Assembly (NCBI GenBank): GCA_002368735.1
Contig: DFEQ01000006.1
Location: forward strand, 1-45,637
DNA length: 45,637 bases
Source of the DNA: Christensenella sp. UBA3798
GTDB lineage: Bacteria; Bacillota; Clostridia; Christensenellales; CAG-1252
Direction: 5' to 3'
Below the pieces are notes generated by a model that made no database searches, was not told where the DNA came from, and worked only from the letters and a program-made list of their open reading frames with translations. Shown piece by piece: positions 299-45,637 of the stretch. The translations under genes were made by a program, and so were the position numbers. Each line of letters starts with the position of its first letter. Position 1 is the stretch's first letter.

Positions 299-1141
299 AT
301 GAAAAAGACAATTTGCACCCTTTTGATACTTTTACTCGTAATGGGAGCGTGCGTCGGTGCCTTTGCCTGCAAGGCAAGCATTCAGACGGACAAAGCGTAT
401 CAACGCTACGTCTACGACGCCCGCACCGACAGCTTTGTGAAGATGGGCACCTCCATCGTATTCACCGACGACTTCAAAGGCTTCGAATACTCCTTTGGGG
501 GGGACGCCATCACCATCTACGGCACGGTGGAGCACACCGACACGCCCGAAAGCTATATCATCACTTGCAACGAGGAGGCGATCTCGGTGGTGAGCAAGCG
601 CTACCGCGAGACTCTCATCGCAGGGGGCGCCGACCAAACGCAAATCGACTTTTACGACGCCGTCGCCGCGAATCTGACACCAAAGACGCAATACTACGTC
701 TATGACGGCAAGCTCTTTACGGCGGACGCCATAGAGCTTTTCCGCGAAGCGGAAGATGGCTCGGACGCCTTTGAAGGGCTGTATCGCATGAGTTCTTCCG
801 AAGACCTCGTTCGTCTGCGCGGCGGCTATGCTTATACCAAGGACGAAGATGGTGAATACACCTACAAAAACGGCAGATATACCGTTTCGCGCGGGATATT
901 GACCCTTATCACCTTGGACGAAAACGGCAAGGACAAATATCAAGACGGCGTGCTGATGCGTAAGCGCTATTTGATGGCGAAGGTCACCGTTCCGAGCGAC
1001 GGAGAACTCGTGGAGACCTCGCTGGAAGAGCAGCTGCAGACCTCAGCCTTCGTTTCCAAGATAACTGCCGATATATCCGCATATTCCGGAAAGACCATCG
1101 CCGTATTGTGCGATGAATTCCTGTCCAAGGATATGGAGTGA
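299..1141 (+). CDS. Putative lipoprotein or secreted protein, 280 aa, family not recognised
   Basis: ATG at 299 to TGA at 1139-1141. The N-terminus MKKTICTLLILLLVMGACVGAFAC-KAS has a basic n-region, a hydrophobic core and a lipobox-like AFAC (Cys24, nt 368-370). The track ORF 146..1141 starts at a GTG. It would add 51 residues that read through the T-run hairpin, so I prefer the 299 start. Confidence 0.8.
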   Translation: MKKTICTLLILLLVMGACVGAFACKASIQTDKAYQRYVYDARTDSFVKMGTSIVFTDDFKGFEYSFGGDAITIYGTVEHTDTPESYIITCNEEAISVVSKRYRETLIAGGADQTQIDFYDAVAANLTPKTQYYVYDGKLFTADAIELFREAEDGSDAFEGLYRMSSSEDLVRLRGGYAYTKDEDGEYTYKNGRYTVSRGILTLITLDENGKDKYQDGVLMRKRYLMAKVTVPSDGELVETSLEEQLQTSAFVSKITADISAYSGKTIAVLCDEFLSKDME

Positions 1142-1248: not shown

Positions 1249-1277
1249 TTGACTTCTTCGTGCGTACGCATTAGAAT
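1249..1277 (+). promoter_or_regulatory. Sigma-70/SigA-type promoter of the giant-gene operon
   Basis: TTGACT (1249-1254), a 17-nt spacer, then TAGAAT (1272-1277). An A/T-rich UP-like stretch (ATAAGAAAACTTAATAAATA) lies immediately upstream. The predicted 5' UTR is roughly 55 nt. Confidence 0.6.
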
Positions 1278-1338: not shown

Positions 1339-1416
1339 ATGACAAAAAATCTTCACACGAAAATTCTGCTTATACTACTGCTTTGCTTCGTGGTCGTGCT
1401 CGTCGCCTTTGCCTGT
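1339..1416 (+). other. Lipoprotein-type signal peptide with AFAC lipobox (Cys26)
   Basis: Basic n-region (K3, H6, K8), a 15-residue hydrophobic core, then V-A-F-A-C with TGT at 1414-1416. This fits the permissive PROSITE-style lipobox pattern. The same AFAC, and the same 11-mer GCCTTTGCCTG, are found in the gene at 299. Confidence 0.6.
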
Positions 1417-28400: not shown

Positions 28401-31400
28401 CACGGTCTATCGCAAGATAACCGTACCCGACGACGTCGTCGTGGAGGTGAATCCCTATCAAGTATCGCTCCCCGCTACCTTGACGGTGAACGTGGGCGGC
28501 GCAGTCAAGTATAATTCCGCGACGGGCAAGTACGAGGCTCTGCCCGTATCCGTCTGCGGCTGCGAGAGCTGCGTTGGCTACTGCGGTACCGTTGACCCCG
28601 TCACGGGAGAACTCACCTTGACCGACGATAACTGCACCTGCGCAAAGTGCAAGTCTTACCTCGTCACCTTGAAGGCGGATTGGAGCAAGACGACCATCGA
28701 CTACTCCTATCCCGTCGTGAATCAGCTTGAAGGCAACTACATGGTCGTTGCGGAAAGGGTCAGCATCGGCAACCGGAACTGCGGCTATCAGGAGTGCAAC
28801 GTGAAGGTGGTCGTCCTCAATAAGAGGGTGCAGTCCATCTCGGTAGAGGAATTCGACATCGACCCGTACGACTATCGCACGCTCCCCTCGTCCACCAACG
28901 TGACCTTCCTTGACAATACCTCGGGCGAACTGCCTCTCGCGGCGAATATCGCAAGCGCCGTCAAGGACGCCTCCAATACCAATACCAGCTTCTACCAAGG
29001 CGGCAAATATACCGTCAAGGCATACCTCGGCGATAGGGTGGGCGGCTATCAAGAATTCAACATCACCTTGAACGTCAAGGATAGGACGATAGCGAAACTC
29101 GAGATAGACGGCGCCATCGTGGCGGGCGAAGAGGACGCTACGATGGATATCAAGCCCTACGCTGACGGCGGCGTGACCAAGCGTCCCGACAAGATGATAA
29201 CGGCGGTATTTACAGACGGCTCCAAGGCGGAACTCAAGGCGCTGTGGAACAGCATCCACATCGAGTACACCTTCGAGGGCGGCTATCAAGAGGCGCTCGT
29301 GCTGCTCGTAGGCAACGCCGAGGGCGGATACCAGAAGGTGCCCGTAAACGTCAGGAACCTCAAAGCCGTGGCGACTTCCGCCACCGCAGAGGATGGCTTC
29401 CTCTACAATACCTTTATGGAAAGGAGCGGTCTCCCTGACAAGGTGGTCGTGACCTTTACCGAGGACAGTTACCTGTCCGTTATGACTCTCGCAGTCGTCG
29501 AATGGGCGGAGAGCGGCGTCATCGACGACGAGACCCGCACCTACGTGACGATGGCAAAGATTGGCGACGACGTCGCGGGCTATCAATGGGTCAAGGTGGT
29601 ATTGCCACTTGCCGAGATAGAGCTGCGCGCGGTGCTCGGCGCGAAGTATGAGATAGACGCCTACGACGACCTTGCCTTCTCGGAGGACGGCAGGTTGCTC
29701 AGCGCAAGCGGCGGCTACTTCACCGTAAGCGGACAGATCGGCGAAGAACTCACGCAGTCCTTGTACGTCAAGCTGCTCGAAACCCCTGTCTATACCTTTG
29801 AGGGCGCCGAGGGCGAAAATGCGCTCTTTATCAAGATCGCGGTGGGCAACGCGCTCACGGGATACTTCTCCGAGACCTCTACGGGCGAAGAGATAAAGCT
29901 CACCTTGACTGTCAGACCTCGCGTCGTCAGGGCGCTCATCGCACCCGACGGCGAGACCGAGCTCAAGGAGTACTTCACGGGGCTCAAACTCGATCCCTAC
30001 GATATGCCGAATATCGTGACGGGCGGCAAGATAGCCGCGCTCATCGACGGCGGCGCCGTAGTGGATATCGACATATTCTCGGTAAGCTACAAGAAGGCGG
30101 GAGACAGTGACTACAAGAACTACGTCTCCTTCACGGGCGGCAGCTACGATATGAAGATAGTTGTGGGCAACGCCCTGCATGGCACGCAGGAGATGATATA
30201 CTCTATCACCGTCGCGCCCAAGATCATCGCCTCGGTGGACGAACTCACCGACAAGGTGGTAGACCCCTACGAATATCGCCTGCCCAAGGAGGTCAACGTG
30301 ACCTTCACTGACGGCGGCAGGGCTAAGCTCTCGGTGGTGTATAGGACCTTGAACGAGGCGGGCAAGAAGGTGCCCTTCGGCGATGAGAACATCGTGTATT
30401 CGGGCGGCTCCTTCGACGTCTATGCCATCTTTGACCTCCACGGCTTCCAGCAGGAATACTTGTTTAAGCTCGTGGTCAATCAGAGCTTCGTGGATTCTAT
30501 CGGTCCCGGCATGCTCATCGAGATAGACCAGCTGGACGGCACCCTCACCTTGCTTGACGAGATAGAGCTCATCATCTCGGGCGAATCTGTCCGCAAGAGC
30601 GCCGATAAGGGCGATTGGACGATCACCTCCGGCGCGGACGGCAAGTATCACATCACCCTCCCCGAGGGTGGCGACCCGGGCAGTTGGGACCTCTCCGAGG
30701 TGGACCTCGGCTATATGGGCGGCACCTATTACGCCTACTACAGATACGGCAATGCCGCGGCGGGATATCAGCTCGTGCAGGTGCCTGTGGTCGTATCCGA
30801 AAAGGTCATCGACTACGACAAACTGCAATACGTCGCTTCCTCGAGTGCGGGCAGTATGACCCTCGCATCCTTCGGCAATCCGAGGGAGATAACGGCTGCC
30901 GTGGGCGAATACTTCGAGCTCCCGACGGATCTGTGGGTGGTCTTTAAAGACGGCACGCGCATGCAGAAGCACGTCGAGTGGGACGGCTCCAAGGTGGACC
31001 TCACGAGGACGGGAAGGTACGAGATCACCACCACCGTGCTCGAGCAGACCATCACCGCTTACCTCACCATCACGGAGAGCAGGAAGGTGATGGGCGACGA
31101 CGTCTTGGACGTCGTGGTCGCTTCGCGCGGCGGAGTATACAGCTTGCCCACGACCATCCGTCAGAATATCTACCTGCGCACTACGTCGGGCAGCTACAAC
31201 CTCGCGCCCGAACCTGCGCCCGCCAAGGCGATCGTTTGGGATAGAAAGCCCTCCACCGCGGTGGAAGATAAGTACTACTTGGTGGGTACCGTATCCAACG
31301 GAACCTTCTCCTGGACGAGGACCATCACCCTCTACGTGTACAGCACTTACGTGAGCTACGTCGTATCGACGTGCGAAAGCAGGGCTCTCGGCACCGCGGC

Positions 31401-32457: not shown

Positions 32458-32521
32458 GTCGATAGCGTATAGCGGCAGAGATAAACATGACAGACGCACC
32501 CCGAGGTGCGGAAAACAAATA

Positions 32522-32530
32522 GAGGTAGGA
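32522..32530 (+). promoter_or_regulatory. Shine-Dalgarno region for the second giant ORF
   Basis: GAGGTAGGA at 32522-32530. The GAGG ends 7 nt before the ATG at 32533. Confidence 0.55.
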
Positions 32531-32532
32531 CT

Positions 32533-32640
32533 ATGACTGTAACACAAAGACGGACAAAATGGAAGGCAGGACTCATCATCGCACTGGCGGCGATAATCTT
32601 GTTGACGCTGCTTGCGGTGTCGCTTTCGATAGCGACCGAC
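32533..32640 (+). other. N-terminal signal anchor or uncleaved signal peptide
   Basis: A basic n-region (RRTKWK) is followed by a ~23-residue hydrophobic stretch, AGLIIALAAIILLTLLAVSLSIA. There is no lipobox Cys. Confidence 0.6.
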
Positions 32641-35600
32641 CATTCGGCAACGGCGGAGGAAGAGAAGATAACCTTCGGCGATAGAGTGGCGAAAGGGCAG
32701 CGTTACGAGCTGGTCAGCGGCAGCGTGAGCAACTTGGAAGACTATGCGCCGGGCGAGGACGGGCTGATATCGACAGCGGGTCAGCTGTACTATATCTTCT
32801 TCTCCGAAAATGCCACCGGCAGCTATACTCTGACCACGAACTTCAAGATAAACTACCTCGGTTGGGCTATCTCGGGTCCTACCCTCCGAGGCAATCTCAA
32901 CGGCGCAGGTTACGAGATCTGGAATGCAGCCGTTCCCGCAAATAACGAGTCCGTTCCTACCAATACCAAGGACTACGTCGGCGGCTTAGCGGGCGAGATA
33001 AGCAAGGATAAGAAAGTCGAGAACCTCTATTACTATTTCACCGGCAGCATCACCGCAAAGAAGGTCGCGGCGGCTTCCTACCTCGCCGTCGGCGGCATGG
33101 TGGGCGTCAATAACGGCAAGATAAACTCTTGCTACATCAACGTCGCGGGCGACATCGAGACCGAGGCGGATACCGCAGAGATGACCAGCTACGTCGGCGG
33201 CGTGGTGGGCTATATGGCGGCGGGGCAGATCTATCAGTGCCCCTACGTCGTATCCAGCGCCTCCGTCAACGCCTACACCGACAAGGAGACCGGCTCCTCT
33301 ACCGCCAAGCACAATATCGTCTACGCGGGCGGCATCGTGGGCAAGCTTGACGGCGGCAACGTCAGCAAGTGTACCATCAAAGCCGCGGGCGCGACCATGG
33401 CGGCGGATAATACCGACAAGTGGGAAGAGGAGAATATCGTCGGGACCATCCTGGATATTTTAGGTAACATTACGGGTTACAAAATAGAGTTGAAGACCGC
33501 CTATAACGACGCGCAGCACGTCCACCCTGCGGGGGTGGTGTTCGGCGGTCTCGGCAACGGCGGCGAGATAAGCTATAACGTGGTCGAGGCGTCGGGCGGC
33601 GCCATATCGTACGGCACGGGCGGCGCCAGCAACGTCGGCTCCATCGCGGGCGGCTTTATCGGCGAGATAAAGGGCGCGGGGACGGTGCAGAGCAATTCCG
33701 TCAAGCTCAAGTGCTCGCTGAGCGCCTTCATCGTGCAGGACTTCTCTTTGACGGACACGGTTGCGAGTTGGTTCGCCGAAAGGGACCTCGACATCTACGT
33801 CGGCGGCGTGGTGGGCAGGTACAACGGCGGCAGCCCCAATATCTCCAATAACTATTTCGCCGTTGAGACCGACGACGACATCATCGAAAGCGCCTACGGC
33901 ACGAAGGGCGACCTCGGATACGAGTGCAATACCGGTCTTATCTGCGGTAACTCCGACTTGATGGGTAAGCTGGGCGCTAACAACTGGCTCGCTCGCAACC
34001 TCTCCGAATCGGATACGGGGCGCATCGCGGGTAACAAGACCCCATCGTCAAATACCAACCTGCATCACCTCGTCATCTTCGGCGACGGCGAGGTCAAGGT
34101 AAAGGGCACGATGACCGACTCCACGATGAATGTCGAAGTCAAGCCCATCTGCTCGCCTTTCTACGCCTGGATGACCGCCGATGAACTGCTCACGGGCTCG
34201 ATATCTTCGGAATCGAAGAAAAAGACCAAGACCCTGACGCAAAGCGAATCCAACGTACTGTTTGCGGTGTTTATCGACACCGAGATAGAGAGTTCGGGCG
34301 AACTCACCCAGCTTGCGCGCGATATCAATCAAATCAAGCTGAAAGTGTATCAAAATATCGGCTCGGGGGTGAATGACTCCGACGGCAATCTGCTGATGAG
34401 CTTCAGCGGCGTTTCCACGCCCACCCTGTCTTGGCTCAACGTGACGCTCAAGAAGGATATCCTCGTGCGCGACGGCACCCCCGTCATAGAGGATTTCTAC
34501 GGCACCTTCAACGGCAACGGTCACACCATCTCCTTCGCCGCGGGCAGTTCGATATCGCACGAGTTTGAGAAAGACCCCGATAAGAAGGACGAATATTCCA
34601 AGGAGGACGACCCCAATGCCGACATCACCGACTTTAAGGAATACACTACCGGTCTGTTCGGCGTCATCAAGTCGGGCGCAAGGGTCACCGACCTCAAGAT
34701 CGTCTTCGGCGGCGCCATCGACGAGAGCGGCGGCATCACCTATCGCGCTCTGAAAGACGCAAGCGATAAGGTAAAGGCGAAGAGAAAGCATAAGATAGAA
34801 GGGGATAGCCGGGAGGCAGACGCCAACAGCGTATTCAACAATAGCTTTGCGATGGCGGATTTCTCCTTCCCCGCCTATTCCACCTTTGACGAAGCCTATT
34901 TCTACGGCTTGAAGGGTGACGATTACGATGCCGGTCGCGCCTACAACCCCGGCTATATCGAGGTAGTACCCTATACGGTGGATATCGTGGTGGAGACTTT
35001 CTACGTGGGCATCCTCGCGGGAAAGAACGAAGGCACCATTCAGAACGTGGAGGTGGAAGCCACCAAGTCCGCCTTCGTGACCTGCGCGGCGGATAACAGC
35101 GTCTTCGGCACCCTCTGCGGACTCAACGTGGGACAGATAAACAACGTCAAAGTCACCCTGACGGGCAAGGCGACCATCAGCGGGCGCACTTCCGCTGTCG
35201 CGGGCGGCATGATCGGCGTCAGTCAGGCGGTGAGCGGCGCGCAGTTCAACGGGCTCAACGCTTACGTATCGGGCGAGATCAAGCTGGAATCCTTATACAA
35301 CTTCCACGCCGTGAACATCACGATGTATAAGCATGCGAAGCTCAAGGACGGCAGCAGCGAGGACGACGGGTACGGCGTCATCGGGTGGGACTCCACGAAT
35401 GACTCCCAGGATAAAGCGGTCGATATCTTTGAGGTCAAGGAATTGATGGGCACCTCATCCTACCGCTTGTACGGCAACGACCACACCGTGGTGGAGCAGT
35501 CCATCGGCACTCTCGTCGGGCGCTATGACGCAAACCAGGCTACCTTCAATAACGTAGCGGCGGTCTCGGGCAGCAAGGGCACCTTCAATACCACCATCTA

Positions 35601-38600
35601 TCAGACCGATTCCACGAGCTCGAACGTGGGCGCGATGGTCGGATCTCTGACCACCAGCAAACCCACCTTTAACAATTCTTGGGCGGTCATGTCCTACGAC
35701 GAATACGCCAAGGAGGACGCTTCCTTACGTCGTCGTCCCATCGCTACGGAAGACGTGAACGTGGAGACGGGCATCAACGTGGTCTACGTGCAAAAGACCG
35801 TTGCCATCGCCGAGGTGGATATCTCCTCCTCGACCCCCGTCAGCTTCACCCTCGCTTCGCAGGAAGGGATGGTTTTCTCGGGGTGGTACGACTATACGTC
35901 GGGCGAAAGGTCGGTCATCACCGAGGGGCTCGTGGGCAATCGGTTCACGCCGCAAAATCAGGTGTTAAGCAATAGGATATTCGTTGCGGAACTGTTGAAC
36001 CTGCAATTCTTCACCGCAGAGGACCTCAATGTCCTATCCGCTTCCACGGGCGAGGGCAGAGGTTACCAAGGGGTGACCTTCACGCTCGGCACCAATATCG
36101 CGGTGAGCGGGTTTACCCCCATCGGTACGACGGACAGACCCTTCCTGGGCTCCTTGGACGGCAACGGACTCACCATCACCGTGGAGTCCAACCGCGCGGG
36201 CTTGGACTACGTGGGGCTCTTCGGTTGCGTAGGCTCCACCGGCACCATCAAAAATCTCACCGTGCGCGTTACGGGGGCGCTGGGCAACGCTTCCACCCTC
36301 TACGGCGGCGCGGTCGCCGCGGTCAACTACGGCGTCATCGGTCAGGATACTTCGACGGGTAAGGTCATCGCCGAGATCGACGGTTGGATCAGCGCAAACA
36401 CCGTGGGTGGCTTGGTGGGCGTCAACCACCGCATCGTCAAGAACGCGGAGGTGTATTTCCGCTACGCCACCGAGTATGATTACGGCAAGATAGAGGCGAC
36501 CACTGCGGGCTCCGGTAAGGTCTACGCGGGCGGCGCCATCGGATATAACGAGTACGAGAACGAAGCGGTCATCGCCAAGAATATCATCGTCTACTATGAC
36601 AATACCGACGTCAATTCCCCCATCATCAGCACAAAGGCGAATTACGCCGCGGGCGGTGTATTGGGCGAGAACGGCAACGGTGCGGCGGCGTACAGCTTGG
36701 TATCCGTCTTTAACCACGCCACCATCTTCGGCGGCGACTTCACGGGGAGCAACGGCGAGCAGTCGCAGTATCGCGGCTTGATCGTGGGTCACAACGCCTC
36801 CAAGAATAATACCGATTCCTTGTGGGCGCTGTGCTTGTCCAAGAGCAAGACCTCGGACGTCTATTACGACCCCGCACTCGGTGCGCCCCTCGCGGTATAT
36901 CAGGGGAGTGATGAGAACGTTACCACCGGTCAAGCGGTGCTCATGAGCGGCGAAGACCACGGAAGCGCCAATATCCTCATCAAGTACGGCTGGGGCGACG
37001 TGACCGTCACGATAAACGGCGCGGAGAGCGTCAAGGGCGGTCAAATCACCTTCCTTGCTTCCAAACTTCCCGTCCAGGATAAGAATGGAGACGACATCCC
37101 CGAAGTGAAGAGGGTGGCGTTCTACGACTACGTGGCTTCCTTCGAGCACGGCACCAGGGTGCCCGTCTCCGAGGGCAATACGGGCTTTACCTTCTCCCCG
37201 ACGGTGGGCGGCGCAAACGGCGCGGGCTTGTCGGGCAAGGTATATTATGCGGGCTTCTGCAATACGACCATCGCTTCACAGGAGGATTATATTGCGGTAG
37301 CTGAAAATATCGCGGGCGATTACAGATTGTACGTGGAGTACAATATCAACAACAATTTCACCATCGACGAGAATTCGACGGCAGCCATCGGCATGGCGGA
37401 GAAGCCCTTCGTCGGCTGTATCAACGGCAACGCTTATACCGTAACGATGAGCTCCTCGTCCACCCTGCATCCCTTCGTGGGCGTGCTTGGCGCGGAAGGG
37501 GATGCGCGGCATTCCTCCCGCATCAAGAACCTCTTTATCGACGTGCGTTCTGGCAATTCTTCCGTGACTACGGGCGACGTGGCAAGGGGCATATTGACCG
37601 ACGTCAACTACGGCACGATATCGGGCGTGAACATCGCGCTGCACGGCTACTTGAAGACGGGCGGCTCGGCAGGCGCCGTCGCGGGTATCAACTACGGCAA
37701 GATAGAGTCCGCCGTCGTCACCGTCGAATACGCCAAGGCATTCGGTAGGAACGGATTCGGCGCCATCGTGGGTAAGAACGCGGGCGGTATCGCGGGTGAG
37801 AACTACGGCGAGATAGGCGGCTCTATGGCAAACTCCATCGAAGTGACCGTCTCCAGAGAAGGCAGCTACTTCGGCGTGCTCTATGCTTCCGAGAGCGTGG
37901 GCGCCATTGCGGGCGTCAATAAGACGGGCGGCGTCGTCCGCTCGGCGTTCGTCTCGGTTTCGGGTACCATCGCGGGCAAATACGCTTCCGCACTCGTCGG
38001 CACCAATGAAGGGCGCATCGAGAGCGCCTTCGTGAACGTCGAAGCGAAGGCAGCCTACGCGGGCAGCGAAGCCTTCGGCGCCATCGCGGGCGTCAACAGA
38101 GGGCTCGTTGGTTACGAGGAAGTCAATTACGATAGTTACCAAAAGGACGTCTTGGCATTTATCTACGCCGCACCCACCGAGTGGAGGACAAATACCAACG
38201 TGGATCTGACCATCACCGTGGGCAGCGAGTCCGAGACAGTCACCGTGTGCACCATTCCCGCGATGGCTACCGCCGCGATGGGCGGCGTCATCGGTATCAA
38301 CGAGGTCGATGGCGTCGTCAACGCCGTCATAGCGGAGACGCACGCCCTTATTGCCCTCGCCACCTTCGACGCGGAGGAAGAGGTCGTGAGCTATGTGGGC
38401 GGCATCGTCGGTAAGAACTATGGCACGCTGTCTTGCTCTACCTTGACCACGGCGGCGGGCTCAGCCATCCATGCGGATATCGCGGGCGGCGTGGCGGCTC
38501 TCAACGAGGGCTATATCGACCGCGTGATAGTTACTCTCCGCGGCGCGGTGGGCAAGGAAAGCACCATCTATGCGGGCGGCGTCGTCGGCAAGAATATCGG

Positions 38601-41600
38601 GGCTGTCTCTAATACCGCAGTTGCCCTCTACGAGGACGTGTACGGCACGTATGTCGGTCTCGCGGCAGGCGATACCACTGCTTCTTGCGCCACCAATACC
38701 TGGGTGCAGATATGCAATAGCTCCCTCAGCAAGGTGGTGGGTACGAACGTCGAGGAGACGGGATTCAACGTCATCCGAGTGCTCAACGAAACGCTTTTGA
38801 GCGTTAGTTTGAACGAGAGAATGGGGCGCTTCAGCTTTACCTCGTCGATATCGGGTGTCAAAAACTGGTATACCGACATCTCGGCTTGGACGGAGAATGA
38901 AGGCTACCTCAAGACCATGACCAATCGCTCGGTGTACGTGTCGGACGGCATGGAAACCAACGTGACCTATTACGTCTGCTACGACGACCTTCTCATCACC
39001 GATTACACCTCCTTCAACGCCCTCGCGACCAAGATAAACAGCCATTCCTACTATAACAACGTCCTCTTCCGTCTGGACGGCGATATCGTGGTGGACGCGG
39101 GCAAAGTCTTGCGCCCCATCGGCACGGAGGATCATCCCTTCAACGCCATCTTTGACGGCGCTCTTTATACCATAACGATGGAGAAGGACTCCTCTATCAG
39201 CGGCCAGGAGTACACGGGTCTCTTCGGCTACACCGCCCCCAACAGCGTGATAAAGAGTTTCGTCTTTATCGTGGAGGAGGGCGCTTCGATAGGTAGCGTA
39301 AACAGCAACGTCATCGGCTCTCTCGTGGGCTATAACCAAGGCGTCATCGAGAATGTCTTCGTCAACCTTTCCATCAATCTGACCTATAAGTCGGATAAGA
39401 GGAGCGCGGGCGAGATCATCGGCGAGCAGGCGTCGGATGCGCCGAACGTGCGGAACGTGTGGATCAGCGTGCTCAATGGCAAGGACCGCGTGGTGGGCAA
39501 TATGACCACCTCTCAATTCGGCGTCAACCAGCTCGGTGTGCTCGGCAACGGTATGACCACCGCGGAGATATATACGGGCGAAGGCAAACTCAGCGACCTC
39601 CGCAAGAGATATCTCGCGGGAGAGTCGCCCGAGCTTTCCGTGCGCTATAAAGCCGTCAAGGGCTTTAGCTCTTTCGATAACGGTTGGTATAAGGATATCA
39701 CCAAGGAGGCGGGCTTCAATTCGGCAAACCTCACGGGGATAGGCTCCTTCGTCGGCAATAGCGACAACGACGATATCCGCATGGTCACCGATCCCGATGC
39801 GGTAAACTGCAGCGTTACTTTGTCCTTCATCAAGCTGGGTATCAAGACCGCCGCCGACTTTGCCGAGTTCGCCGAGAATATCAAGAATTACGGCGACCAA
39901 GGCGCGGTGTTTAGGCTGGAGGCAGATATCATCGTCAGTTATCCCTCCGTCATCGCGGTAGGTACTCCCGACCGTCCCTTCACGGGTACCTTTGACGGAC
40001 AGGGTCATACCATCACCGTCACGGGCAAAGCCATCAAGAGGGCGTACGCCGGTGTGTTCGGCTACGTCGGGACGGGCGGCACCATCCGCAACCTCCTCAT
40101 CGAAACGGGCGAGAACGTGCGCTTCGGTGACAACGACGCCCTGTATTCGGGCGTGGCGGTCGCGCTCCTTTACGGCAGCATCAAGAACGTGGTCGTGCGC
40201 GTGCACGCCGATACCGTTGTCTACACCACGCAGGGCACCCCCTCATCGGGCGGCATCGTAGGCAGGGCGGGCAAGCTCGCCGAGGACGGTTCGGTCTTCT
40301 ACGACTACACCATCGACAACTGCTGGCTCATTTTGGAGGAGAATGCCACCGTTACCGAGCCGATGGGTCGGCAGGAGGGCGAGGCGTATCCCGCATTCTA
40401 CGAGCTGAACGGCGTGGGCAGAAAGATGCGCATGGTGGGCAGTATATACCTTGAAGACGACCCCCTGGAGACCAATCCCTTCAATAAGGGTGCGCTCCGC
40501 GTGTCCATCACGGCGGACGGCGCCATCCTCTTCGATACGACGGAGGTCGACAGCGCCTTCTACGGCTTTATCGACAATACGACGACCGAGGAGGATATGA
40601 TCAAGCCCATCTCGGACGTTGCTACCAGCCTCTATCGTTGGACGGTGCGCGAGGGAGGCGTATACGGCAGTACTGCGTCGCCCAAGGTGGCAAGCAACGA
40701 TATGCTGTGCGTCATCATCAATAAATATATTTCCACCGTGGACGACTTCTTGATGATATCGGAGAACGTGCGTCTCGGCAGGAACTATCGCGGTATCGAG
40801 TATCAGCTCGCTAACGACCTTATCATCACGGCTGCGGACCTTGAAAACGGCGTCTATCAGCCCATCGGCGGCGAAGTGAAAGTGCAGTCGGGCGCAGGCT
40901 TTGACAGCTATATCGAGCGCAACTTTATCGGCAGCTTCAGCGGCAATAAGCACACCATTACCCTCGCCGCGGACGTCGTCATCGACGCGCGTTACGCAGG
41001 GCTCTTCGGCAGAGTGGGCGAAGGCGCCAGGATACGCGACCTTATCATCAAGGCGTACTGCCCCATCGGCAGAGACAGCGCGGATAATACCACGCGCACC
41101 ATCTATGCGGGCGTACTTGCGGGATATGCCTTCGGCGGCTCGTACAATAATATCGCCATCGTACTGGACACCAACGCCTCTCTCTTCGGTTCGGTTGGGA
41201 CGGGACGCGCCTTCGGCTATCTCGACGTGGAAGGTGACGTGGCGAAGAATTCGTGGGTCATCAGCTACAACAGCAAGGCGAACTACGAGCTGGGCGAGAG
41301 CGAACTCTCCTACAATAACGGCGGGGAGGGCATCGACCAGGGCGGCTTCAACAGCTTGATGGTCATCGCCGCGGGCGTTGTGAACGTACGCTTCAATCAG
41401 AACGACAGCAACTTTAACTTCACCTATTCCGTGCCCAATACATCTGAGAATTCGCAGGAGGTAGTCGCGCCCTACTGGTATGACAGATATAGGAATTCCG
41501 AGTCGAATAAAGACGACTATTTCCACAGCCGTACCGATAAGACGGGCGATTGGGATGATACCTTCAACGCAATGGTCAACGACACGGAGGTTTACGGCTA

Positions 41601-44600
41601 TTATCCCGACGGCAACGAGAAGCGCCGCTTGTATAACGTCAGCTTCCTCAACAGCCGCATCGAAAGCGCCGACGACCTAATGAAGTACGCCGCCAACGTC
41701 AACGCGGGCTACGACTTCTACATGTTGACCTTTACCTTGGAGAATGATATCGCCATCGATAACGGCTTTAAGGCGATAGGTACCGCCCTGAACGGCATGA
41801 ACGGCACCTTCGACGGCAATAAGCACACCATCACCCTTCCCAAGGATATCTCGGTGGAAGGGGAATACGCGGGCATCTTCGGATACGTGGCGGCGGACGG
41901 CGCTATCGTCGACCTTCGCATCGTCGTCGAGGGGACCCTCGGCAAGAGCGACTATACGCAGGACGATATAGACGCCTTAAAGGTAAAGAATACGCGCTAC
42001 GCGGGCGCTATCGCCTATAATAACGGCGCCCTCTCCAACGTCATCGTGATATCCAAGGGGGCGCGCCTCAACGCCTTGACCACCGCGAGCGTGCAGGGGG
42101 TCAAGGGGCTTGCCATCGGCTATGACGCCACCAACCTCCTCGAGAACGTCTGGGCGCTCGTGGACGCCTCTTCCTACGTCGACGCCATCGGCGTCTGCGC
42201 CGTGGGTGATACCCGCGTCAACGTGATGACCGTCATCGGTATCGGCGTCATCGACGCGAACTTCGCTTCCGATTCCTATAAAGTGAAGTTCACCAACGAA
42301 CTGCTCCATTACGATTCGGAGGACGCGGGCGTCCATATCCCCGTCATGGGCTGGTACAAGTCCTTTGAGAAAAATCAGCAGATATCCAAAGCGATGCTTT
42401 CGTCGGGCGACGAAGAAAAGTCGGGCGACCTGTCCAACGGGGAAGAAGGCTACCTCCTCGCCCCCATCGACTATACGGGTGTTCATTACGAGGTAGCGGT
42501 CATCAAGACGACCCTCACCCAAGTGGCGGACCTCATGGCGATAGCCGAGGACGTCAACGTGGGCGGATATACCTTTGAAAACATCACCTTTAACCTCGGC
42601 GCGACCATCACGCTCTCCTCCGAGTCCTACTTTATGCCCATCGGCAATGCGGAGCATCGCTTCAAGGGCACCTTCAGCGGCAAGGCGGAGGATAGTTATC
42701 ATACCATCCGCATATCCGATACTTGCGTAAGTGAGTTTGTCTCGCAGGGCATCTTCGGCGTTAGCGCGGGCACCGTCACCGACCTCGGCGTAGAGGTGTA
42801 CGGCACGGTGGGCAGAGCTTCGGGCTCTGTGGATAATATCTACGGCGCCGTCGTGAACGTAAACTACGGCACCGTCAAGCGCAGCTATGTGGACGTCAAG
42901 GCGGGCGGCATCGTCACGGGGTATACGGTAGGCGGCATCGTCGGCGCGAACCACGGCACGGTATCCGACTGTCTGGCATTCGTGCGTGAAGGCGGCACGG
43001 TAAGAGCCACCACCAAGCTCAGAAACGTGGTCAACGCGGGCGCTATGGTGGGTATCAACTACGGCACCGTGGAAGGCGCTACCGACTTTACCTATTGGGG
43101 TAAGGATGGTCGCGACCTCTTGCCCAAGGACGACGGGCGTATCGCCAAGGCGGGAAACGGCGCTGAAGCCAACGTCTTTATCTACGGCACGGTATCCGCG
43201 CGTTCGGCGGCTGAGGTATCCGCTCCCACCAATGCGGGCGGTGCGGTAGGCTACCACAGCGAAGGATACATGAATTACCTCATCGTATATCTCGCAGACC
43301 AAGGCGAGGTCACGTCGGAGGCTACGGGCGCAGGCTCCACCCGCGCGGGCGGCTTCGTCGGCTATGCCAAGGCGGCGATGAACCATAGCGTCACCTTCCT
43401 CTTCGGGTCTGTCGTGGCGGAGGAATACCTCGGCGGCACGGCAGGCTACTTGGACGGCGTCATCGCGATGAACGTCTGGCAGGTCACCTTGAACCGCGAG
43501 GTAGAGGGCGCGGGCGAGGGCGCAAAGACCGTCAACTATCTCAATATCAAGGGCAACGGCAAGGTCATGGCGGGTATAGACCTCTTCACCAAGAGGATCA
43601 TCTTTACCAACGTGACGGATGACGAGGGCACCGACCTCGACTATTGGTATACCGCCGCGTCGGTCCAGGTGGACGACAAGACGGGTAACGTGGGCGAGAA
43701 CGGCAATACCTTCCTGCCCCTCAATACCATCCAGAACAAGCACGTGATGGTCATCTTCGTCAATACGCGCATCTATTCCGTCGCCGACCTCAACGATATG
43801 GCTTCCTCCGTCAGCGGCGGCTTGTCGGGTAGCGCCATCGTCTTTACACTCATGAACGACGTCACGGTGGAGGCGGGCGAACTTACCGCCCTCATCGGTA
43901 CGGAGGAATATCCCTTCAATAACGTCTTTGACGGCGGCGGCTACACGATAACCTTGAAGGGCGGCTCGCTTGTCGGCACGGACTACACGGCGCTCTTCGG
44001 CTATAGCGGAGCGACTGCCGTTATCCGCGACCTCACCGTTGAGGCGGAGGCCGGTGATTACGGCTCTGTATCCTCGCAGAAGACCGCCATCCTCACGGCA
44101 GTGAACGAAGGCACCGTCTCGGGCGTGAACGTTACCCTTAAGCAAGGCGCAGCGCTCCTCGGACAGACGGTGGGCGCCGTGACAGCCACCAACTTCGGCG
44201 TCGTCAAGGATATCGTCCTCACTGTAGAGGGTAGCGTGACGGCAAGCGCTGAGAATACCGCCATCGCGGGCGGCCTCGTCGGCGCCAACGACGGCACGAT
44301 AGAAAGAGTATCTGCAAGCGTCGGCGCTACCTCTATGGTCAAGGCGATGGGCGCAGCCACTTCCTATGCGGGCGTCATCGTGGGCGAGAACTATAAGACA
44401 ATCTCGGTCGTGGACGTCCTCTTCCGCGGCGAACTCCTTGCGAGCGGCAGTATGGTGTCCTACTCGGGCACCCTCGCGGGCATCAACCTCGGCAACGTCT
44501 ATCGCGTCTATGCCGACGTCACGGGGGCGGTATTCGGCGCCAACGATAAGGATAGAAGCGGCGGCTTGATAGGTAATAACGTCAACGCGCTTACCACTTC

Positions 44601-45637
44601 GCTCGTCAAGGTGGTGGGCGAGGTCTTCGGCGGCACGGACAGCGCCATCGGCTACACCAAGGCGAAGGATCCCACAAAAGTGCACAACGTGTGGGTGTAT
44701 TCCGATAAGTCAGAGAACGTATCTTCCGCCGCGTGTGTGAACAGCATGACCTTCGACTCCGAATGGGCTATCTCCTGCCCGACGGCGGCAGAGGTCACGG
44801 CGGGTAAGATATCCTTCAGTCGCGATATCACCTCTCTTGACGACTCGATAGCCCTCTTTGCGGGCGTCACGGCAGATGGCAGTTACGACGTGGGCAGCGG
44901 CGCGGCGATGGATAACGTCGTGTATGGTACGGTCGGCGACAACGCCTATATCACCTATGTCACTTACGACGTCGTGGCGGAAAACGCCGTCTCGCGCATG
45001 ATCTCGGACGTTCGCGTGCGTTTGGTGACGAGGTCGGCTATCGGTAGCGGCAGCGAGCTGTATGCCTTTGCTCTTGCCTTGAACAGCGGGGTGTATCACC
45101 TTGCGGACGCCACCTTTACCTTGACCGCGGACATCACCCTCCCCGAGAGGGCGTTCCCCGCGATGCTGATCCCCGCATCCCTCACTTTTGACGGCGGACA
45201 TCACGTCGTCACGGTGGGAGGCGCCACCTTGACGGATGGCTTTGTAGCAGAAAACAACGGCATTATCCAAAAGCTGGGTCTCCGCCTCACCAAAGCGGAA
45301 ACGGCGGCATACCTTATAAAACTCAATAACGGCAACGTCAATAACGCGGCTATCTATTTAGAGAAGGGCGCAAGCCTCGCGGGCGAATTATTCACCCTCA
45401 CGAATAACGGCGTTTCCGATAACCTGTGGGTCGTGGCAAGGGAGCAGGTGACGACCACCTATCCCACCATCCGCATCAACGGCGTAGGCACCCTCACGCA
45501 GGGCGGCGACAACGGCTTGACCTTCAGCGCCGACCCCGCCGACGATATCATCTTTATCGGTTACACGAATAAGGGGGTGGGCGGCAGGAGCATCTTCTCA
45601 GCCGATGCGCTCTTTGATACGGCGGGCGGCTACGTTA
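32533..45637 (+). CDS. Second giant surface protein, more than 4,368 aa, 3'-partial: signal anchor plus GLUG-motif beta-helix modules
   Basis: The frame of ATG 32533 stays open to the window edge. My hand translations at 33001, 36001, 39001, 42001 and 45001 are all in this frame and all give the same repeat type. The ORF track lists no + strand ORF in this frame, which is expected if no stop codon is reached. The N-terminus is MTVTQRRTKWKAGLIIALAAIILLTLLAVSLSIATDH. GLUG-like rungs include YVGGIVGKNYGTLS, VGGLVGVNHRIVKN, AGGLVGANDGTIER and VGGIVGANHGTVSD. Confidence 0.9.
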   Translation, partial: MTVTQRRTKWKAGLIIALAAIILLTLLAVSLSIATDHSATAEEEKITFGDRVAKGQRYELVSGSVSNLEDYAPGEDGLISTAGQLYYIFFSENATGSYTLTTNFKINYLGWAISGPTLRGNLNGAGYEIWNAAVPANNESVPTNTKDYVGGLAGEISKDKKVENLYYYFTGSITAKKVAAASYLAVGGMVGVNNGKINSCYINVAGDIETEADTAEMTSYVGGVVGYMAAGQIYQCPYVVSSASVNAYTDKETGSSTAKHNIVYAGGIVGKLDGGNVSKCTIKAAGATMAADNTDKWEEENIVGTILDILGNITGYKIELKTAYNDAQHVHPAGVVFGGLGNGGEISYNVVEASGGAISYGTGGASNVGSIAGGFIGEIKGAGTVQSNSVKLKCSLSAFIVQDFSLTDTVASWFAERDLDIYVGGVVGRYNGGSPNISNNYFAVETDDDIIESAYGTKGDLGYECNTGLICGNSDLMGKLGANNWLARNLSESDTGRIAGNKTPSSNTNLHHLVIFGDGEVKVKGTMTDSTMNVEVKPICSPFYAWMTADELLTGSISSESKKKTKTLTQSESNVLFAVFIDTEIESSGELTQLARDINQIKLKVYQNIGSGVNDSDGNLLMSFSGVSTPTLSWLNVTLKKDILVRDGTPVIEDFYGTFNGNGHTISFAAGSSISHEFEKDPDKKDEYSKEDDPNADITDFKEYTTGLFGVIKSGARVTDLKIVFGGAIDESGGITYRALKDASDKVKAKRKHKIEGDSREADANSVFNNSFAMADFSFPAYSTFDEAYFYGLKGDDYDAGRAYNPGYIEVVPYTVDIVVETFYVGILAGKNEGTIQNVEVEATKSAFVTCAADNSVFGTLCGLNVGQINNVKVTLTGKATISGRTSAVAGGMIGVSQAVSGAQFNGLNAYVSGEIKLESLYNFHAVNITMYKHAKLKDGSSEDDGYGVIGWDSTNDSQDKAVDIFEVKELMGTSSYRLYGNDHTVVEQSIGTLVGRYDANQATFNNVAAVSGSKGTFNTTIYQTDSTSSNVGAMVGSLTTSKPTFNNSWAVMSYDEYAKEDASLRRRPIATEDVNVETGINVVYVQKTVAIAEVDISSSTPVSFTLASQEGMVFSGWYDYTSGERSVITEGLVGNRFTPQNQVLSNRIFVAELLNLQFFTAEDLNVLSASTGEGRGYQGVTFTLGTNIAVSGFTPIGTTDRPFLGSLDGNGLTITVESNRAGLDYVGLFGCVGSTGTIKNLTVRVTGALGNASTLYGGAVAAVNYGVIGQDTSTGKVIAEIDGWISANTVGGLVGVNHRIVKNAEVYFRYATEYDYGKIEATTAGSGKVYAGGAIGYNEYENEAVIAKNIIVYYDNTDVNSPIISTKANYAAGGVLGENGNGAAAYSLVSVFNHATIFGGDFTGSNGEQSQYRGLIVGHNASKNNTDSLWALCLSKSKTSDVYYDPALGAPLAVYQGSDENVTTGQAVLMSGEDHGSANILIKYGWGDVTVTINGAESVKGGQITFLASKLPVQDKNGDDIPEVKRVAFYDYVASFEHGTRVPVSEGNTGFTFSPTVGGANGAGLSGKVYYAGFCNTTIASQEDYIAVAENIAGDYRLYVEYNINNNFTIDENSTAAIGMAEKPFVGCINGNAYTVTMSSSSTLHPFVGVLGAEGDARHSSRIKNLFIDVRSGNSSVTTGDVARGILTDVNYGTISGVNIALHGYLKTGGSAGAVAGINYGKIESAVVTVEYAKAFGRNGFGAIVGKNAGGIAGENYGEIGGSMANSIEVTVSREGSYFGVLYASESVGAIAGVNKTGGVVRSAFVSVSGTIAGKYASALVGTNEGRIESAFVNVEAKAAYAGSEAFGAIAGVNRGLVGYEEVNYDSYQKDVLAFIYAAPTEWRTNTNVDLTITVGSESETVTVCTIPAMATAAMGGVIGINEVDGVVNAVIAETHALIALATFDAEEEVVSYVGGIVGKNYGTLSCSTLTTAAGSAIHADIAGGVAALNEGYIDRVIVTLRGAVGKESTIYAGGVVGKNIGAVSNTAVALYEDVYGTYVGLAAGDTTASCATNTWVQICNSSLSKVVGTNVEETGFNVIRVLNETLLSVSLNERMGRFSFTSSISGVKNWYTDISAWTENEGYLKTMTNRSVYVSDGMETNVTYYVCYDDLLITDYTSFNALATKINSHSYYNNVLFRLDGDIVVDAGKVLRPIGTEDHPFNAIFDGALYTITMEKDSSISGQEYTGLFGYTAPNSVIKSFVFIVEEGASIGSVNSNVIGSLVGYNQGVIENVFVNLSINLTYKSDKRSAGEIIGEQASDAPNVRNVWISVLNGKDRVVGNMTTSQFGVNQLGVLGNGMTTAEIYTGEGKLSDLRKRYLAGESPELSVRYKAVKGFSSFDNGWYKDITKEAGFNSANLTGIGSFVGNSDNDDIRMVTDPDAVNCSVTLSFIKLGIKTAADFAEFAENIKNYGDQGAVFRLEADIIVSYPSVIAVGTPDRPFTGTFDGQGHTITVTGKAIKRAYAGVFGYVGTGGTIRNLLIETGENVRFGDNDALYSGVAVALLYGSIKNVVVRVHADTVVYTTQGTPSSGGIVGRAGKLAEDGSVFYDYTIDNCWLILEENATVTEPMGRQEGEAYPAFYELNGVGRKMRMVGSIYLEDDPLETNPFNKGALRVSITADGAILFDTTEVDSAFYGFIDNTTTEEDMIKPISDVATSLYRWTVREGGVYGSTASPKVASNDMLCVIINKYISTVDDFLMISENVRLGRNYRGIEYQLANDLIITAADLENGVYQPIGGEVKVQSGAGFDSYIERNFIGSFSGNKHTITLAADVVIDARYAGLFGRVGEGARIRDLIIKAYCPIGRDSADNTTRTIYAGVLAGYAFGGSYNNIAIVLDTNASLFGSVGTGRAFGYLDVEGDVAKNSWVISYNSKANYELGESELSYNNGGEGIDQGGFNSLMVIAAGVVNVRFNQNDSNFNFTYSVPNTSENSQEVVAPYWYDRYRNSESNKDDYFHSRTDKTGDWDDTFNAMVNDTEVYGYYPDGNEKRRLYNVSFLNSRIESADDLMKYAANVNAGYDFYMLTFTLENDIAIDNGFKAIGTALNGMNGTFDGNKHTITLPKDISVEGEYAGIFGYVAADGAIVDLRIVVEGTLGKSDYTQDDIDALKVKNTRYAGAIAYNNGALSNVIVISKGARLNALTTASVQGVKGLAIGYDATNLLENVWALVDASSYVDAIGVCAVGDTRVNVMTVIGIGVIDANFASDSYKVKFTNELLHYDSEDAGVHIPVMGWYKSFEKNQQISKAMLSSGDEEKSGDLSNGEEGYLLAPIDYTGVHYEVAVIKTTLTQVADLMAIAEDVNVGGYTFENITFNLGATITLSSESYFMPIGNAEHRFKGTFSGKAEDSYHTIRISDTCVSEFVSQGIFGVSAGTVTDLGVEVYGTVGRASGSVDNIYGAVVNVNYGTVKRSYVDVKAGGIVTGYTVGGIVGANHGTVSDCLAFVREGGTVRATTKLRNVVNAGAMVGINYGTVEGATDFTYWGKDGRDLLPKDDGRIAKAGNGAEANVFIYGTVSARSAAEVSAPTNAGGAVGYHSEGYMNYLIVYLADQGEVTSEATGAGSTRAGGFVGYAKAAMNHSVTFLFGSVVAEEYLGGTAGYLDGVIAMNVWQVTLNREVEGAGEGAKTVNYLNIKGNGKVMAGIDLFTKRIIFTNVTDDEGTDLDYWYTAASVQVDDKTGNVGENGNTFLPLNTIQNKHVMVIFVNTRIYSVADLNDMASSVSGGLSGSAIVFTLMNDVTVEAGELTALIGTEEYPFNNVFDGGGYTITLKGGSLVGTDYTALFGYSGATAVIRDLTVEAEAGDYGSVSSQKTAILTAVNEGTVSGVNVTLKQGAALLGQTVGAVTATNFGVVKDIVLTVEGSVTASAENTAIAGGLVGANDGTIERVSASVGATSMVKAMGAATSYAGVIVGENYKTISVVDVLFRGELLASGSMVSYSGTLAGINLGNVYRVYADVTGAVFGANDKDRSGGLIGNNVNALTTSLVKVVGEVFGGTDSAIGYTKAKDPTKVHNVWVYSDKSENVSSAACVNSMTFDSEWAISCPTAAEVTAGKISFSRDITSLDDSIALFAGVTADGSYDVGSGAAMDNVVYGTVGDNAYITYVTYDVVAENAVSRMISDVRVRLVTRSAIGSGSELYAFALALNSGVYHLADATFTLTADITLPERAFPAMLIPASLTFDGGHHVVTVGGATLTDGFVAENNGIIQKLGLRLTKAETAAYLIKLNNGNVNNAAIYLEKGASLAGELFTLTNNGVSDNLWVVAREQVTTTYPTIRINGVGTLTQGGDNGLTFSADPADDIIFIGYTNKGVGGRSIFSADALFDTAGGYV
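34495..45216 (+). repeat. At least 10 module-head cassettes ([IV]..a.dL..[fl]a..vn......f.L..DI......PIG....F.G.FDG.GHTI....Y.GLFG.....I..L.V)
   Basis: FDGNGHTI-type cores are at nt 34495, 36139, 37405, 39136, 39976, 40921, 41797, 42661, 43912 and 45181, giving spacings of 280-577 aa. An example is IKTAADFAEFAENIKNYGDQGAVFRLEADIIVSYPSVIAVGTPDRPFTGTFDGQGHTITVTGKAIKRAYAGVFGYVGTGGTIRNLLIE. Confidence 0.8.

Follow-up and report, generated by a model that had tools for sequence, protein, structure and literature searches.

At the end of contig DFEQ01000006.1 of Christensenella sp. UBA3798, a giant open reading frame (ORF), here termed ORF2, runs off the available DNA without reaching a stop codon. 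This raises the questions whether ORF2 is a gene at all, how long its complete product would be and which task such a protein could fulfill at the cell surface. Here, the whole stretch of 45,637 bp with a GC content of 57% was analyzed, which is referred to as the window. The ORF2 gene and its architecture, a chain of GLUG-type beta-solenoid modules, are near-certain. For the product, a putative role as a Sec-exported, membrane-anchored, non-catalytic adhesive or structural surface fibre is on balance probable, and the chances that it is an adhesin specifically are roughly even.

ORF2 Is a Conserved Coding Sequence

The frame stays open from the ATG at 32533 through 45636, i.e., over 4,368 codons, just as the sequence-only reading of this DNA had stated, and the last in-frame stop in front of this ATG ends at 32490. 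The start region and the ORF are as follows.

32521..32526, plus strand: Shine-Dalgarno-like AGAGGT (AGAGG core), 7 nt before the ORF2 ATG, read from the sequence
32533..45637, plus strand: ORF2, partial coding sequence, N-terminal 4,368 codons without a stop, cut by the window edge; collinear orthologues at 54-69% identity

It is near-certain that ORF2 is a real, conserved coding sequence, since it is conserved on the protein level across its orthologues. The last 350 residues, used as query in species-representative genomes, retrieved three orthologous loci: L002 in a metagenome-assembled genome of an uncultured Clostridia bacterium (64% identity over these residues), L003 in Christensenella sp. 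UBA3770 (NCBI lineage Clostridia, Christensenellales; 60%) and L004 in Clostridiales bacterium UBA10307 (54%). ORF2 is collinear with these loci, with 69% identity over 1,933 aa, 61% over 2,890 aa and 59-62% otherwise. Furthermore, a profile of the ORF2 modules described below was used for an exhaustive HMMER search, which revealed complete proteins of 5,597-7,338 aa with 18-21 module matches each. One of these, P0123 (6,286 aa), aligns in a single high-scoring segment pair, in which ORF2 aa 1-4364 match P0123 aa 1-4342 at 61% identity. Alignments of P0126 and P0127 run from end to end at 38-40% identity, and approximately 12 further clusters, built at 50% identity, align at 25-30% over ~3,500 residues.

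A frame that is open by chance in GC-rich or repetitive DNA, or an artefact of the assembly, would be the alternative to a gene. The antisense strand also carries long ORFs, so stop-free frames arise easily in this DNA, and the frame is broken in two relatives, of which L001 ends at 490 aa and L004 contains a frame break. Nevertheless, more than 15 divergent clusters are conserved over thousands of residues with intact frames of ~6,300 codons, ORF2 possesses a proper ribosome-binding site, start codon and signal peptide, its modules yield a confident structure prediction and the synteny of the locus is conserved. The conservation data refute this alternative, and its probability is next to nil.

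The antisense ORFs, up to 1,629 aa long, lie on the minus strand opposite both giant genes of the window, ORF2 and its upstream neighbor ORF1 (e.g., 16942-21831, 13261-16263, 27943-30972 and 41977-44685). They are probably stop-poor frames arising from codon and composition bias and not genes. In L001 (1587-3997, Logan SRR12711441), the ORF2 homologue that stops at 490 aa is followed at once by an ORF in another frame with an MBG/YDG-like start (VQSATYVDKNVGTGKNVTVTISNRNYSLDN); possible explanations for the short homologue are a variant that is short by nature, a frameshift and a chimeric assembly. In L004 (4674-4921), two overlapping ORFs take the place of a single one in the UBA10307 orthologue, with the split at the equivalent of ORF2 aa ~3638; this is a frameshift or an assembly error.

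Length of the Complete Product

In the majority of close clusters, the family members measure 6,126-6,518 aa, and in nine clusters 6,256-6,384 aa. Beyond the position that corresponds to the window edge, P0123 continues for 1,944 residues, L003 for 1,952, L004 and L010 for 1,955 and L008 and L009 for 2,023, and the orthologue in L002 is still open 1,875 aa past this position. Since six independent orthologues extend 1,944-2,023 aa past the edge, the full ORF2 product is estimated at ~6,300-6,400 aa, of which the window would contain the N-terminal ~69%. The sequence-only reading had called the true length unknown, which is correct for the window and can now be replaced by this estimate.

ORF2 is a single-copy chromosomal gene of an uncultured Christensenellales-like Clostridia bacterium. 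A 56-mer at the window end has no exact match in the metagenome collection, and protein-level scans of the genome and metagenome collections revealed only relatives of 53-64% identity (53-55% in metagenomes). Word-indexed searches with the N-terminal 700 aa of ORF2 and with one module returned a single fragment each. Here, P0001 is 50% identical to the N-terminal block and P0002 is 62% identical to module 9. No description of the ORF2 family was found in the literature searched.

Modular Architecture

The internal repeats of ORF2 were detected by windowed BLAST of the protein against itself; a self-BLAST of the whole protein gave the identity match only. These repeats are diverged, with a mutual identity of 25-45%, and each of them is anchored on a PFxGxFDGxGHTI element. 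The consensus of a ten-unit alignment reads I.S..DL...A..N.G......FTL..DI.V......PIGT...PF.GTFDGN.HTIT.........Y.GLFG.VG..G.I.DL.I.V. A hidden Markov model (HMM) built from this alignment delimits ten complete modules in the window, and complete orthologues contain 13-14, i.e., 3-4 more past the window-edge position. Each unit consists of an alpha-helical cap with the PFxGxFDGxGHTI turn, a GLUG-type beta-solenoid of ~150 residues and a small beta-domain of ~100 residues. The arrangement along ORF2 is as follows.

32800..33942, plus strand: N-terminal GLUG-like rung block, aa ~90-470, six GG[LIVMF][LIVA]G rungs (motif list; Pfam Glug 13.1-13.2 bits; 50% identical to P0001)
34273..34932, plus strand: module 1, aa 581-800, with further rungs at aa 807-915 (module HMM 116.8 bits)
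35995..36549, plus strand: module 2, aa 1155-1339 (module HMM 163.8 bits)
37258..37809, plus strand: module 3, aa 1576-1759 (module HMM 167.5 bits)
37816..38772, plus strand: long rung-only solenoid extension, aa 1762-2080, rich in GLUG-like rungs (partial module HMM matches; motif list; Pfam Glug 16.8 bits in a 500-aa piece)
38986..39549, plus strand: module 4, aa 2152-2339 (module HMM 182.2 bits)
39829..40398, plus strand: module 5, aa 2433-2622, helix cap and beta-solenoid (module HMM 178.7 bits; AlphaFold2 pLDDT ~90; top Foldseek match 3N6Z)
40420..40716, plus strand: example of a small inter-solenoid beta-sheet domain, aa ~2630-2728 (strands at residues 198-296 of the two-module model; no Pfam match)
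40717..41328, plus strand: module 6, aa 2729-2932 (module HMM 159.7 bits; in the two-module model)
41647..42216, plus strand: module 7, aa 3039-3228 (module HMM 169.9 bits)
42502..43035, plus strand: module 8, aa 3324-3501 (module HMM 167.1 bits)
43759..44271, plus strand: module 9, aa 3743-3913, with extra rungs to ~aa 4060 (module HMM 179.1 bits; 62% identical to P0002)
45028..45525, plus strand: module 10, aa 4166-4331, the last complete one before the window edge (module HMM 111.6 bits)

The N-terminal GLUG-like block is probably the membrane-distal tip of the protein. The coordinates of the modules are nearly identical in ORF2 and P0123, and a two-module segment measures 552-663 aa across 16 family members. 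Because of this conserved segment length and the near-identical coordinates, the modules can be regarded as positionally orthologous and not as recently amplified repeats.

On the level of single rungs, the sequence-only reading had counted dozens of GG[LIV]VG.N.G.[IV] motifs, which turned out to be too many, since this strict motif occurs only 3 times in ORF2. The relaxed pattern GG[LIVMFA][LIVA]G is found 20 times, vs. 0.87 expected and a maximum of 4 in 500 composition-preserving shuffles, and [GA]G[LIVMFA][LIVAMT][GA] is found 26 times vs. 3.65 expected. With relaxed patterns, 20-26 rungs, far above chance, are therefore present.

Predicted Structure of the Modules

An AlphaFold2 model of aa 2433-2796, calculated with an alignment of 60 rows, displays an N-terminal helix followed by regular short strands, with a predicted local distance difference test (pLDDT) score of ~90 for residues 1-184, the part covered by this model. 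For the module at 39841-40920, which the sequence-only reading had singled out for structure prediction, a helix cap and a beta-solenoid are thus confidently predicted. A two-module stretch (aa 2433-3100, 11 orthologous segments) was modeled with a mean pLDDT of 76.7 and a predicted TM-score (pTM) of 0.73. Here, the order of elements repeats, starting with a helix cap, followed by a beta-solenoid (~150 aa), a short helix, a small beta-sheet domain (~100 aa) and the next cap.

A Foldseek search against the PDB placed 3N6Z first (E 1.3e-3, probability 0.98). The other long matches are all beta-solenoids, namely ice-binding proteins, pectin methylesterases, pectate lyases, SRRP, IgA1 proteases, tailspikes, Ag43 and Hbp. 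We are confident that the predicted fold of the ORF2 modules is that of beta-solenoid units; a right-handed winding is suggested only by the homology to 3N6Z and the IgA1 proteases described below and by the solenoid classes matched. The small beta-domains between the solenoids do not match any Pfam family. An assignment as Listeria-Bacteroides (Flg_new) repeats, considered due to an 'F.GWY' pattern, was rejected, since it finds no Pfam support even at E ≤ 1.

Several of these matches are enzymes. ORF2 might hence be a multi-catalytic carbohydrate-active enzyme (CAZyme), in which each module resembles a pectate lyase or a glycoside hydrolase and the whole protein forms a polysaccharide-degrading array on the surface. 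This would be in line with the Foldseek matches to pectin methylesterases, pectate lyases, GH55, GH110, GH136 (LnbX) and phage tailspikes, and also one match of the module profile carries PF20585 (Pectate_lyase_5). However, such structural matches have E > 0.02 and low TM-scores and reflect the generic solenoid fold only, and no CAZyme-type family of Pfam or NCBIfam was detected. The solenoids are short (~150 residues) without protruding active-site loops, and where homology is significant, it is to 3N6Z and to the non-catalytic IgA1-protease beta-helix. This enzymatic function is improbable.

Relationship to Glug Proteins and IgA1 Proteases

The modules had been recognized in the sequence-only reading as the GLUG motif (PF07581) of IgA1-protease-like and other large surface proteins. 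A scan of the whole ORF2 with Pfam and NCBIfam gave no match, and on pieces of ORF2 the Glug model reached 16.8, 13.1-13.2, 12.0 and 7.4 bits, below its gathering score of 20.5. ORF2 is thus not a formal member of Pfam Glug. On the profile level, the relationship is firm. A module profile built from ORF2 only retrieves 135 proteins with E-values down to 7e-18, most of them carrying PF07581, several PF05342 (Peptidase_M26_N) and one the above-mentioned PF20585. An alignment of ORF2 only, compared by hhalign with 28 external Glug-annotated proteins, matched with a probability of 99.6% and an E-value of 1.9e-24 over 159 columns, covering the cap, the FDGxGHTI turn and the first GGIVG...I.NC rungs. 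Since PF07581 itself stays below threshold, the homology of the ORF2 modules to the Glug family is based on this profile evidence. What had been described as a giant, truncated Gram-positive-type surface protein of GLUG-type beta-helix modules is, hence, supported by profile homology and by the solenoid models. Neither of the refuting conditions set in the sequence-only reading, an overlooked in-frame stop or a missing Glug or beta-helix signal, applied.

The module is very widespread. With its cap and solenoid it matches 49,727 clusters at 50% identity with E ≤ 1e-3, and 1,245 with E ≤ 1e-30. The module-bearing clusters include numerous proteins with 5-21 copies, which are 2,000-7,800 aa long. 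In the literature searched, GLUG is mentioned in four papers only, and incidentally.

Against the sequences of the PDB, the ORF2-only profile gave nothing significant. A wider profile of ORF2 and its homologues matched 3N6Z at 8.8e-30 and the IgA1 proteases of Streptococcus pneumoniae and Gemella haemolysans at ~1e-16 (6XJA, 6XJB, 7JGJ, 7UVK and 7UVL). In the pneumococcal enzyme, the matched stretch comprises chain residues ~106-394 (residues ~779-1058, as the construct starts at 665), which is the N-terminal beta-helix. This beta-helix is a small, non-catalytic gating domain, and the HExxH motif is located in other (middle and C-terminal) domains (PMC7695701).

Together with PF05342 on some of the module homologues, these matches could suggest that ORF2 is an M26 IgA1-protease-like surface metalloprotease, or another protease. 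However, the matched region is the non-catalytic beta-helix only (PMC7695701). ORF2, P0123, P0126 and P0127 do not contain any HExxH motif, and neither Peptidase_M26_C nor any other peptidase or catalytic family was detected in the Pfam and NCBIfam scans of ORF2 and the extension of L003. Because the motif is absent from ORF2 and the three complete orthologues, the likeness to IgA1 proteases is limited to the scaffold domain. Of the IgA1-protease-like character proposed before, the shared beta-helix stands and the enzyme does not. For the sequenced part and the complete orthologues a protease is effectively refuted, and we regard it as highly improbable for ORF2 in general.

Signal Sequence and Probable Membrane Anchor

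The ORF2 product starts with MTVTQRRTKWKAGLIIALAAIILLTLLAVSLSIATDHSATAEEE, i.e., a basic n-region followed by a hydrophobic core of 23 residues. This is the one strongly hydrophobic N-terminal segment (aa ~12-34, Kyte-Doolittle 2.86).

32533..32655, plus strand: N-terminal Sec-type signal, aa 1-41 (hydrophobic core, candidate AxA sites SIA34 and ATA41, no lipobox Cys)

Within the first 60 residues no Cys is present and thus no lipobox, so that lipoprotein anchoring of ORF2 was rejected. This agrees with the sequence-only reading, which had proposed a signal anchor rather than a lipobox. The signal anchor itself is indistinguishable from a cleavable signal peptide, and an AxA-type motif with acidic residues just after the hydrophobic core, found in all family members compared, favors cleavage.

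The complete orthologues end with ~1,000 residues of YDG/MBG Ig-like repeats, one transmembrane (TM) helix, a Lys/Arg stop-transfer sequence and an acidic tail of 60-110 residues. In L003, the C-terminal extension contains more solenoid-like units as well as YDG (35.2 bits) and MBG_2 (30.2 bits; cutoff 25 each), and its extreme C-terminus displays a hydrophobic helix, a KKKK stop-transfer sequence and an acidic tail of ~60 residues. The precomputed Pfam annotation of P0123 lists YDG only. For ORF2 itself, a YDG/MBG region (PF18657, PF18676) would be expected beyond the window edge, as judged from the collinear orthologues.

Nearly all full-length family members end with the TM helix and the acidic tail, and an LP.TG motif was found in the last 80 residues of none of 20. 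LPXTG anchoring was therefore rejected, since the orthologues possess a TM helix with a long acidic tail instead. Most likely, the lasting anchor of ORF2 is this C-terminal TM helix and not the N-terminal segment. The acidic tails (ORFs of L003, L004 and L010; P0123, P0126 and P0127) share an end motif, which reads DDFDxxDFDIG in close and DDLFSD in distant relatives. An intracellular partner may dock at this motif.

The ORF1-ORF2 Locus

Directly upstream of ORF2 lies a second, even larger gene, ORF1. The features in front of ORF2 are as follows.

299-1141, plus strand: gene of a small putative lipoprotein, 280 aa, MKKTICTLLILLLVMGACVGAFAC... (lipobox-like signal; the terminator at 1154-1186 follows)
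1154-1186: strong intrinsic terminator with a 14-bp stem, preceding the promoter-like site
1249..1277, plus strand: promoter-like site TTGACT-17-TAGAAT upstream of ORF1 (consensus match only)
1339..32457, plus strand: ORF1, a 10,372-aa protein with a lipoprotein signal (orthologues of 10,246, 10,490 and 10,422 aa directly upstream of ORF2 orthologues)

ORF1 displays a lipobox-like signal (…LVAFAC) and many Cys-rich 'CGCxxxxC' clusters. Pfam detects nothing over its first 7,000 residues and Big_4 near the C-terminus, and BLAST and HMM searches of ORF1 revealed no modules of the ORF2 type. For the 280-aa putative lipoprotein, neither Pfam nor an exact look-up in the gene-position index yielded a match.

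The pair of giant genes is conserved, with ORF1 orthologues always in front of those of ORF2. Genes of 10,246, 10,490 and 10,422 aa lie directly upstream of P0123, P0127 and P0132, respectively, and P0132 still keeps this neighbor although it is only ~29% identical to ORF2. In L001, an ORF1-like tail (61% identity) is followed by an ORF2-like head (50%). The gap of 75 bp between ORF1 and ORF2 contains no promoter- or terminator-like signal. A single transcription unit fits to this arrangement, because a terminator and a promoter-like site precede ORF1 and the 75-bp gap is free of signals. ORF1 and ORF2 are thus probably co-transcribed, with TTGACT-17-TAGAAT as candidate promoter of the unit.

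In L003, L005 and L006, the ORF2 orthologue is followed by a membrane protein of ~230 aa, an HD dGTPase-like gene (dgt-like) and dnaG; rpoD is next in L005 and L006, the two loci whose sequence reaches that far. The downstream genes of L007 differ from those of L005 and L006. Since dgt-like, dnaG and rpoD lie downstream in orthologous loci, the ORF2 locus is chromosomal and in a housekeeping neighborhood. On two of three long contigs (L005 29784-34243, L006 30463-34900), the dgt-like gene is found together with dnaG, rpoD and trmK directly downstream of the giant-gene pair.

The membrane protein is conserved with 223-238 aa (L003 14351-15055, L005 28919-29590, L006 29579-30295, L007 29861-30544). 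It directly follows the ORF2 orthologue in L003, L005 and L006, while in L007 the version of 227 aa is the second gene, behind one of 326 aa. Its match to the S-component of ECF transporters is weak and sub-threshold (25.6 bits vs. a cutoff of 30.7), and it may belong to the ORF1-ORF2 unit.

A Surface Fibre or an Envelope Component?

The following mechanism is proposed for ORF2. The product would be exported via Sec, its N-terminal signal would be cleaved and the C-terminal helix would hold the protein in the cytoplasmic membrane, with the acidic tail facing the cytoplasm. The wall would be crossed by the YDG/MBG stalk, and the chain of solenoids would extend away from the cell as a semi-rigid fibre on the order of 100 nm, tipped by the N-terminal GLUG block. 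Glycans or proteins could be bound by the faces of the solenoids without catalysis, whether they occur on other cells, on host mucus or on particles. Probably, ORF2 would act together with the co-transcribed ORF1 product, whose anchoring polarity would be opposite (N-terminal lipid).

Several points weigh against such an adhesive fibre. All database names of the ORF2 homologues read 'hypothetical protein', and PF07581 stays below its gathering score. The structural matches have weak E-values and TM-scores (best E 1.3e-3). Cleavage of the signal is inferred from the AxA-type motif and the acidic residues only, and the C-terminal anchor is known from orthologues only, outside of this window. Furthermore, in a comparison of ORF2 with P0123 in windows of 200 residues, the identity is 56-83% in 20 of 21 windows and 42% in aa 1801-2000, so that conservation is uniform and no hypervariable tip is present. 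Uniform conservation and a fixed order and length of modules are less typical of fast-evolving adhesins and fit a structural scaffold equally well.

This leads to the main rival explanation, in which ORF2 is not an adhesin but a structural component of the envelope. Here, ORF1 and ORF2 would form a superstructure of fixed geometry, such as a sheath, a substitute of an S-layer or a spacer or ruler, as a core feature of the envelope of this lineage. The conserved two-gene cassette, kept down to ~29% identity, would fit to this, as would the length constant within a few percent (6,126-6,518 aa in most close clusters), the positionally orthologous modules with their conserved two-module segment length and the uniform conservation without a variable tip. 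The same holds true for the housekeeping locus directly upstream of dgt-dnaG-rpoD and for the opposite anchoring polarity, with the N-terminal lipobox of ORF1 and the C-terminal TM helix of ORF2. Nevertheless, no signature of self-assembly or a lattice and no SLH or other S-layer domain is present, YDG/MBG domains and GLUG solenoids are typically found in adhesin-like proteins and the linkage to dnaG is not universal, as L007 differs downstream. In addition, adhesive and structural roles are not mutually exclusive. A purely structural function is therefore a serious but lesser possibility.

A further-reaching proposal is that ORF1 (~10,400 aa) and ORF2 (~6,300 aa) constitute an ancient, co-transcribed two-protein machine of ~16,700 residues, which would build a defined surface superstructure (sheath, spacer or inter-cell tether) characteristic of a clade of uncultured Christensenellales-like Clostridia. 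The length and module order of ORF2 would be selected as a molecular ruler, and the acidic DFDxxDFDIG tail would dock an intracellular partner. We consider this rather doubtful. The non-catalytic, membrane-anchored surface fibre, adhesive or structural, remains the reading that we prefer.

Comparison with Known Systems

The solved example of a Glug protein is 3N6Z (BACOVA_03286 from Bacteroides ovatus, a 'putative IgA1 protease'), which displays a helix cap, a PFxGTFDGxGHTI turn and a solenoid of GGxxG...I.N rungs as predicted for ORF2. In contrast, 3N6Z is a single domain of ~340 residues, whereas ORF2 contains 10 units with degenerate rungs that stay below the gathering score of Pfam Glug. 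The extra small beta-domain after each unit sets ORF2 apart from 3N6Z and the Glug proteins.

The M26 IgA1 metalloproteases (ZmpA/IgA1P of S. pneumoniae, 6XJA; G. haemolysans, 7UVK) share a homologous short beta-helix without protruding elements within a giant surface protein of Bacillota (PMC7695701). Here, one beta-helix gates the zinc-protease site, and G5 domains and an LPXTG-type anchor are present. ORF2, on the contrary, has many solenoids and no protease domain, and its orthologues possess a C-terminal TM anchor without LPXTG.

Consecutive giant surface-protein genes in Bacillota, similar to ORF1 and ORF2, have been described in Apilactobacillus kunkeei (PMC12863079). Its Giant1-5 are encoded in a small genome by consecutive genes for surface proteins of 3,000-8,000 aa with a signal peptide and an N-terminal beta-solenoid, which has been proposed to bind ligands (PMC12863079). 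In Giant1-4, a single SRRP-like solenoid is followed by an alpha-helical rod and then by a conserved C-terminal (SH3b-like) domain, and the attachment of these proteins is loose (PMC12863079). ORF2 differs by its chain of GLUG-type solenoids, its YDG/MBG repeats and its TM anchor, in a comparison made by description only.

The SRRP of Lactobacillus reuteri (5NY0/5NXK), Ag43, Hbp and FHA-type adhesins use a right-handed solenoid as a non-catalytic binding scaffold on the surface, as proposed for ORF2. The Foldseek matches of the ORF2 module to SRRP and solenoid adhesins are weak (E 0.7-3). These adhesins depend on aSec/LPXTG or type V secretion, whereas ORF2 contains neither serine-rich repeats nor an autotransporter barrel.

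Finally, a survey of giant genes reported proteins of 10,000-30,000 aa from gut-metagenome Clostridia, which are thought to bind glycoproteins of host or prey (bioRxiv 10.1101/2023.11.21.568195). Like ORF2, they originate from uncultured Clostridia, are very large and repetitive and are predicted to be located at the surface. They contain RCC1, Listeria-Bacteroides repeat, YG-repeat, dockerin and LRR; GLUG arrays, the ORF1/ORF2 cassette and 'Christensenell' are not mentioned in the survey (bioRxiv 10.1101/2023.11.21.568195).

Meaning for the Christensenellales

For ORF2 it can be regarded as settled that the gene is real, that its full size can be estimated, that the anchor is, most likely and as judged from the orthologues, C-terminal, and that the product is not a protease. 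The protein belongs to an already known kind, the giant modular beta-solenoid surface proteins of Bacillota, whose GLUG unit is present in Pfam and has been solved in 3N6Z and the IgA1 proteases. The result is thus a useful annotation and not a surprise, although ORF2 is unusually large and always paired with an even larger neighbor. The GLUG cap-plus-solenoid unit itself is very widespread, yet almost unstudied in the literature searched.

The Christensenellales are prominent, poorly cultured Clostridia of the gut and the environment, and to our knowledge essentially nothing is known about their surface biology. Here, ~50 kb are devoted to two surface proteins, 31.1 kb to ORF1 and ~19 kb to ORF2. 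Since length, order and module layout are conserved across deep divergence, ORF1 and ORF2 probably play a central part in the contact of these cells with their surroundings.

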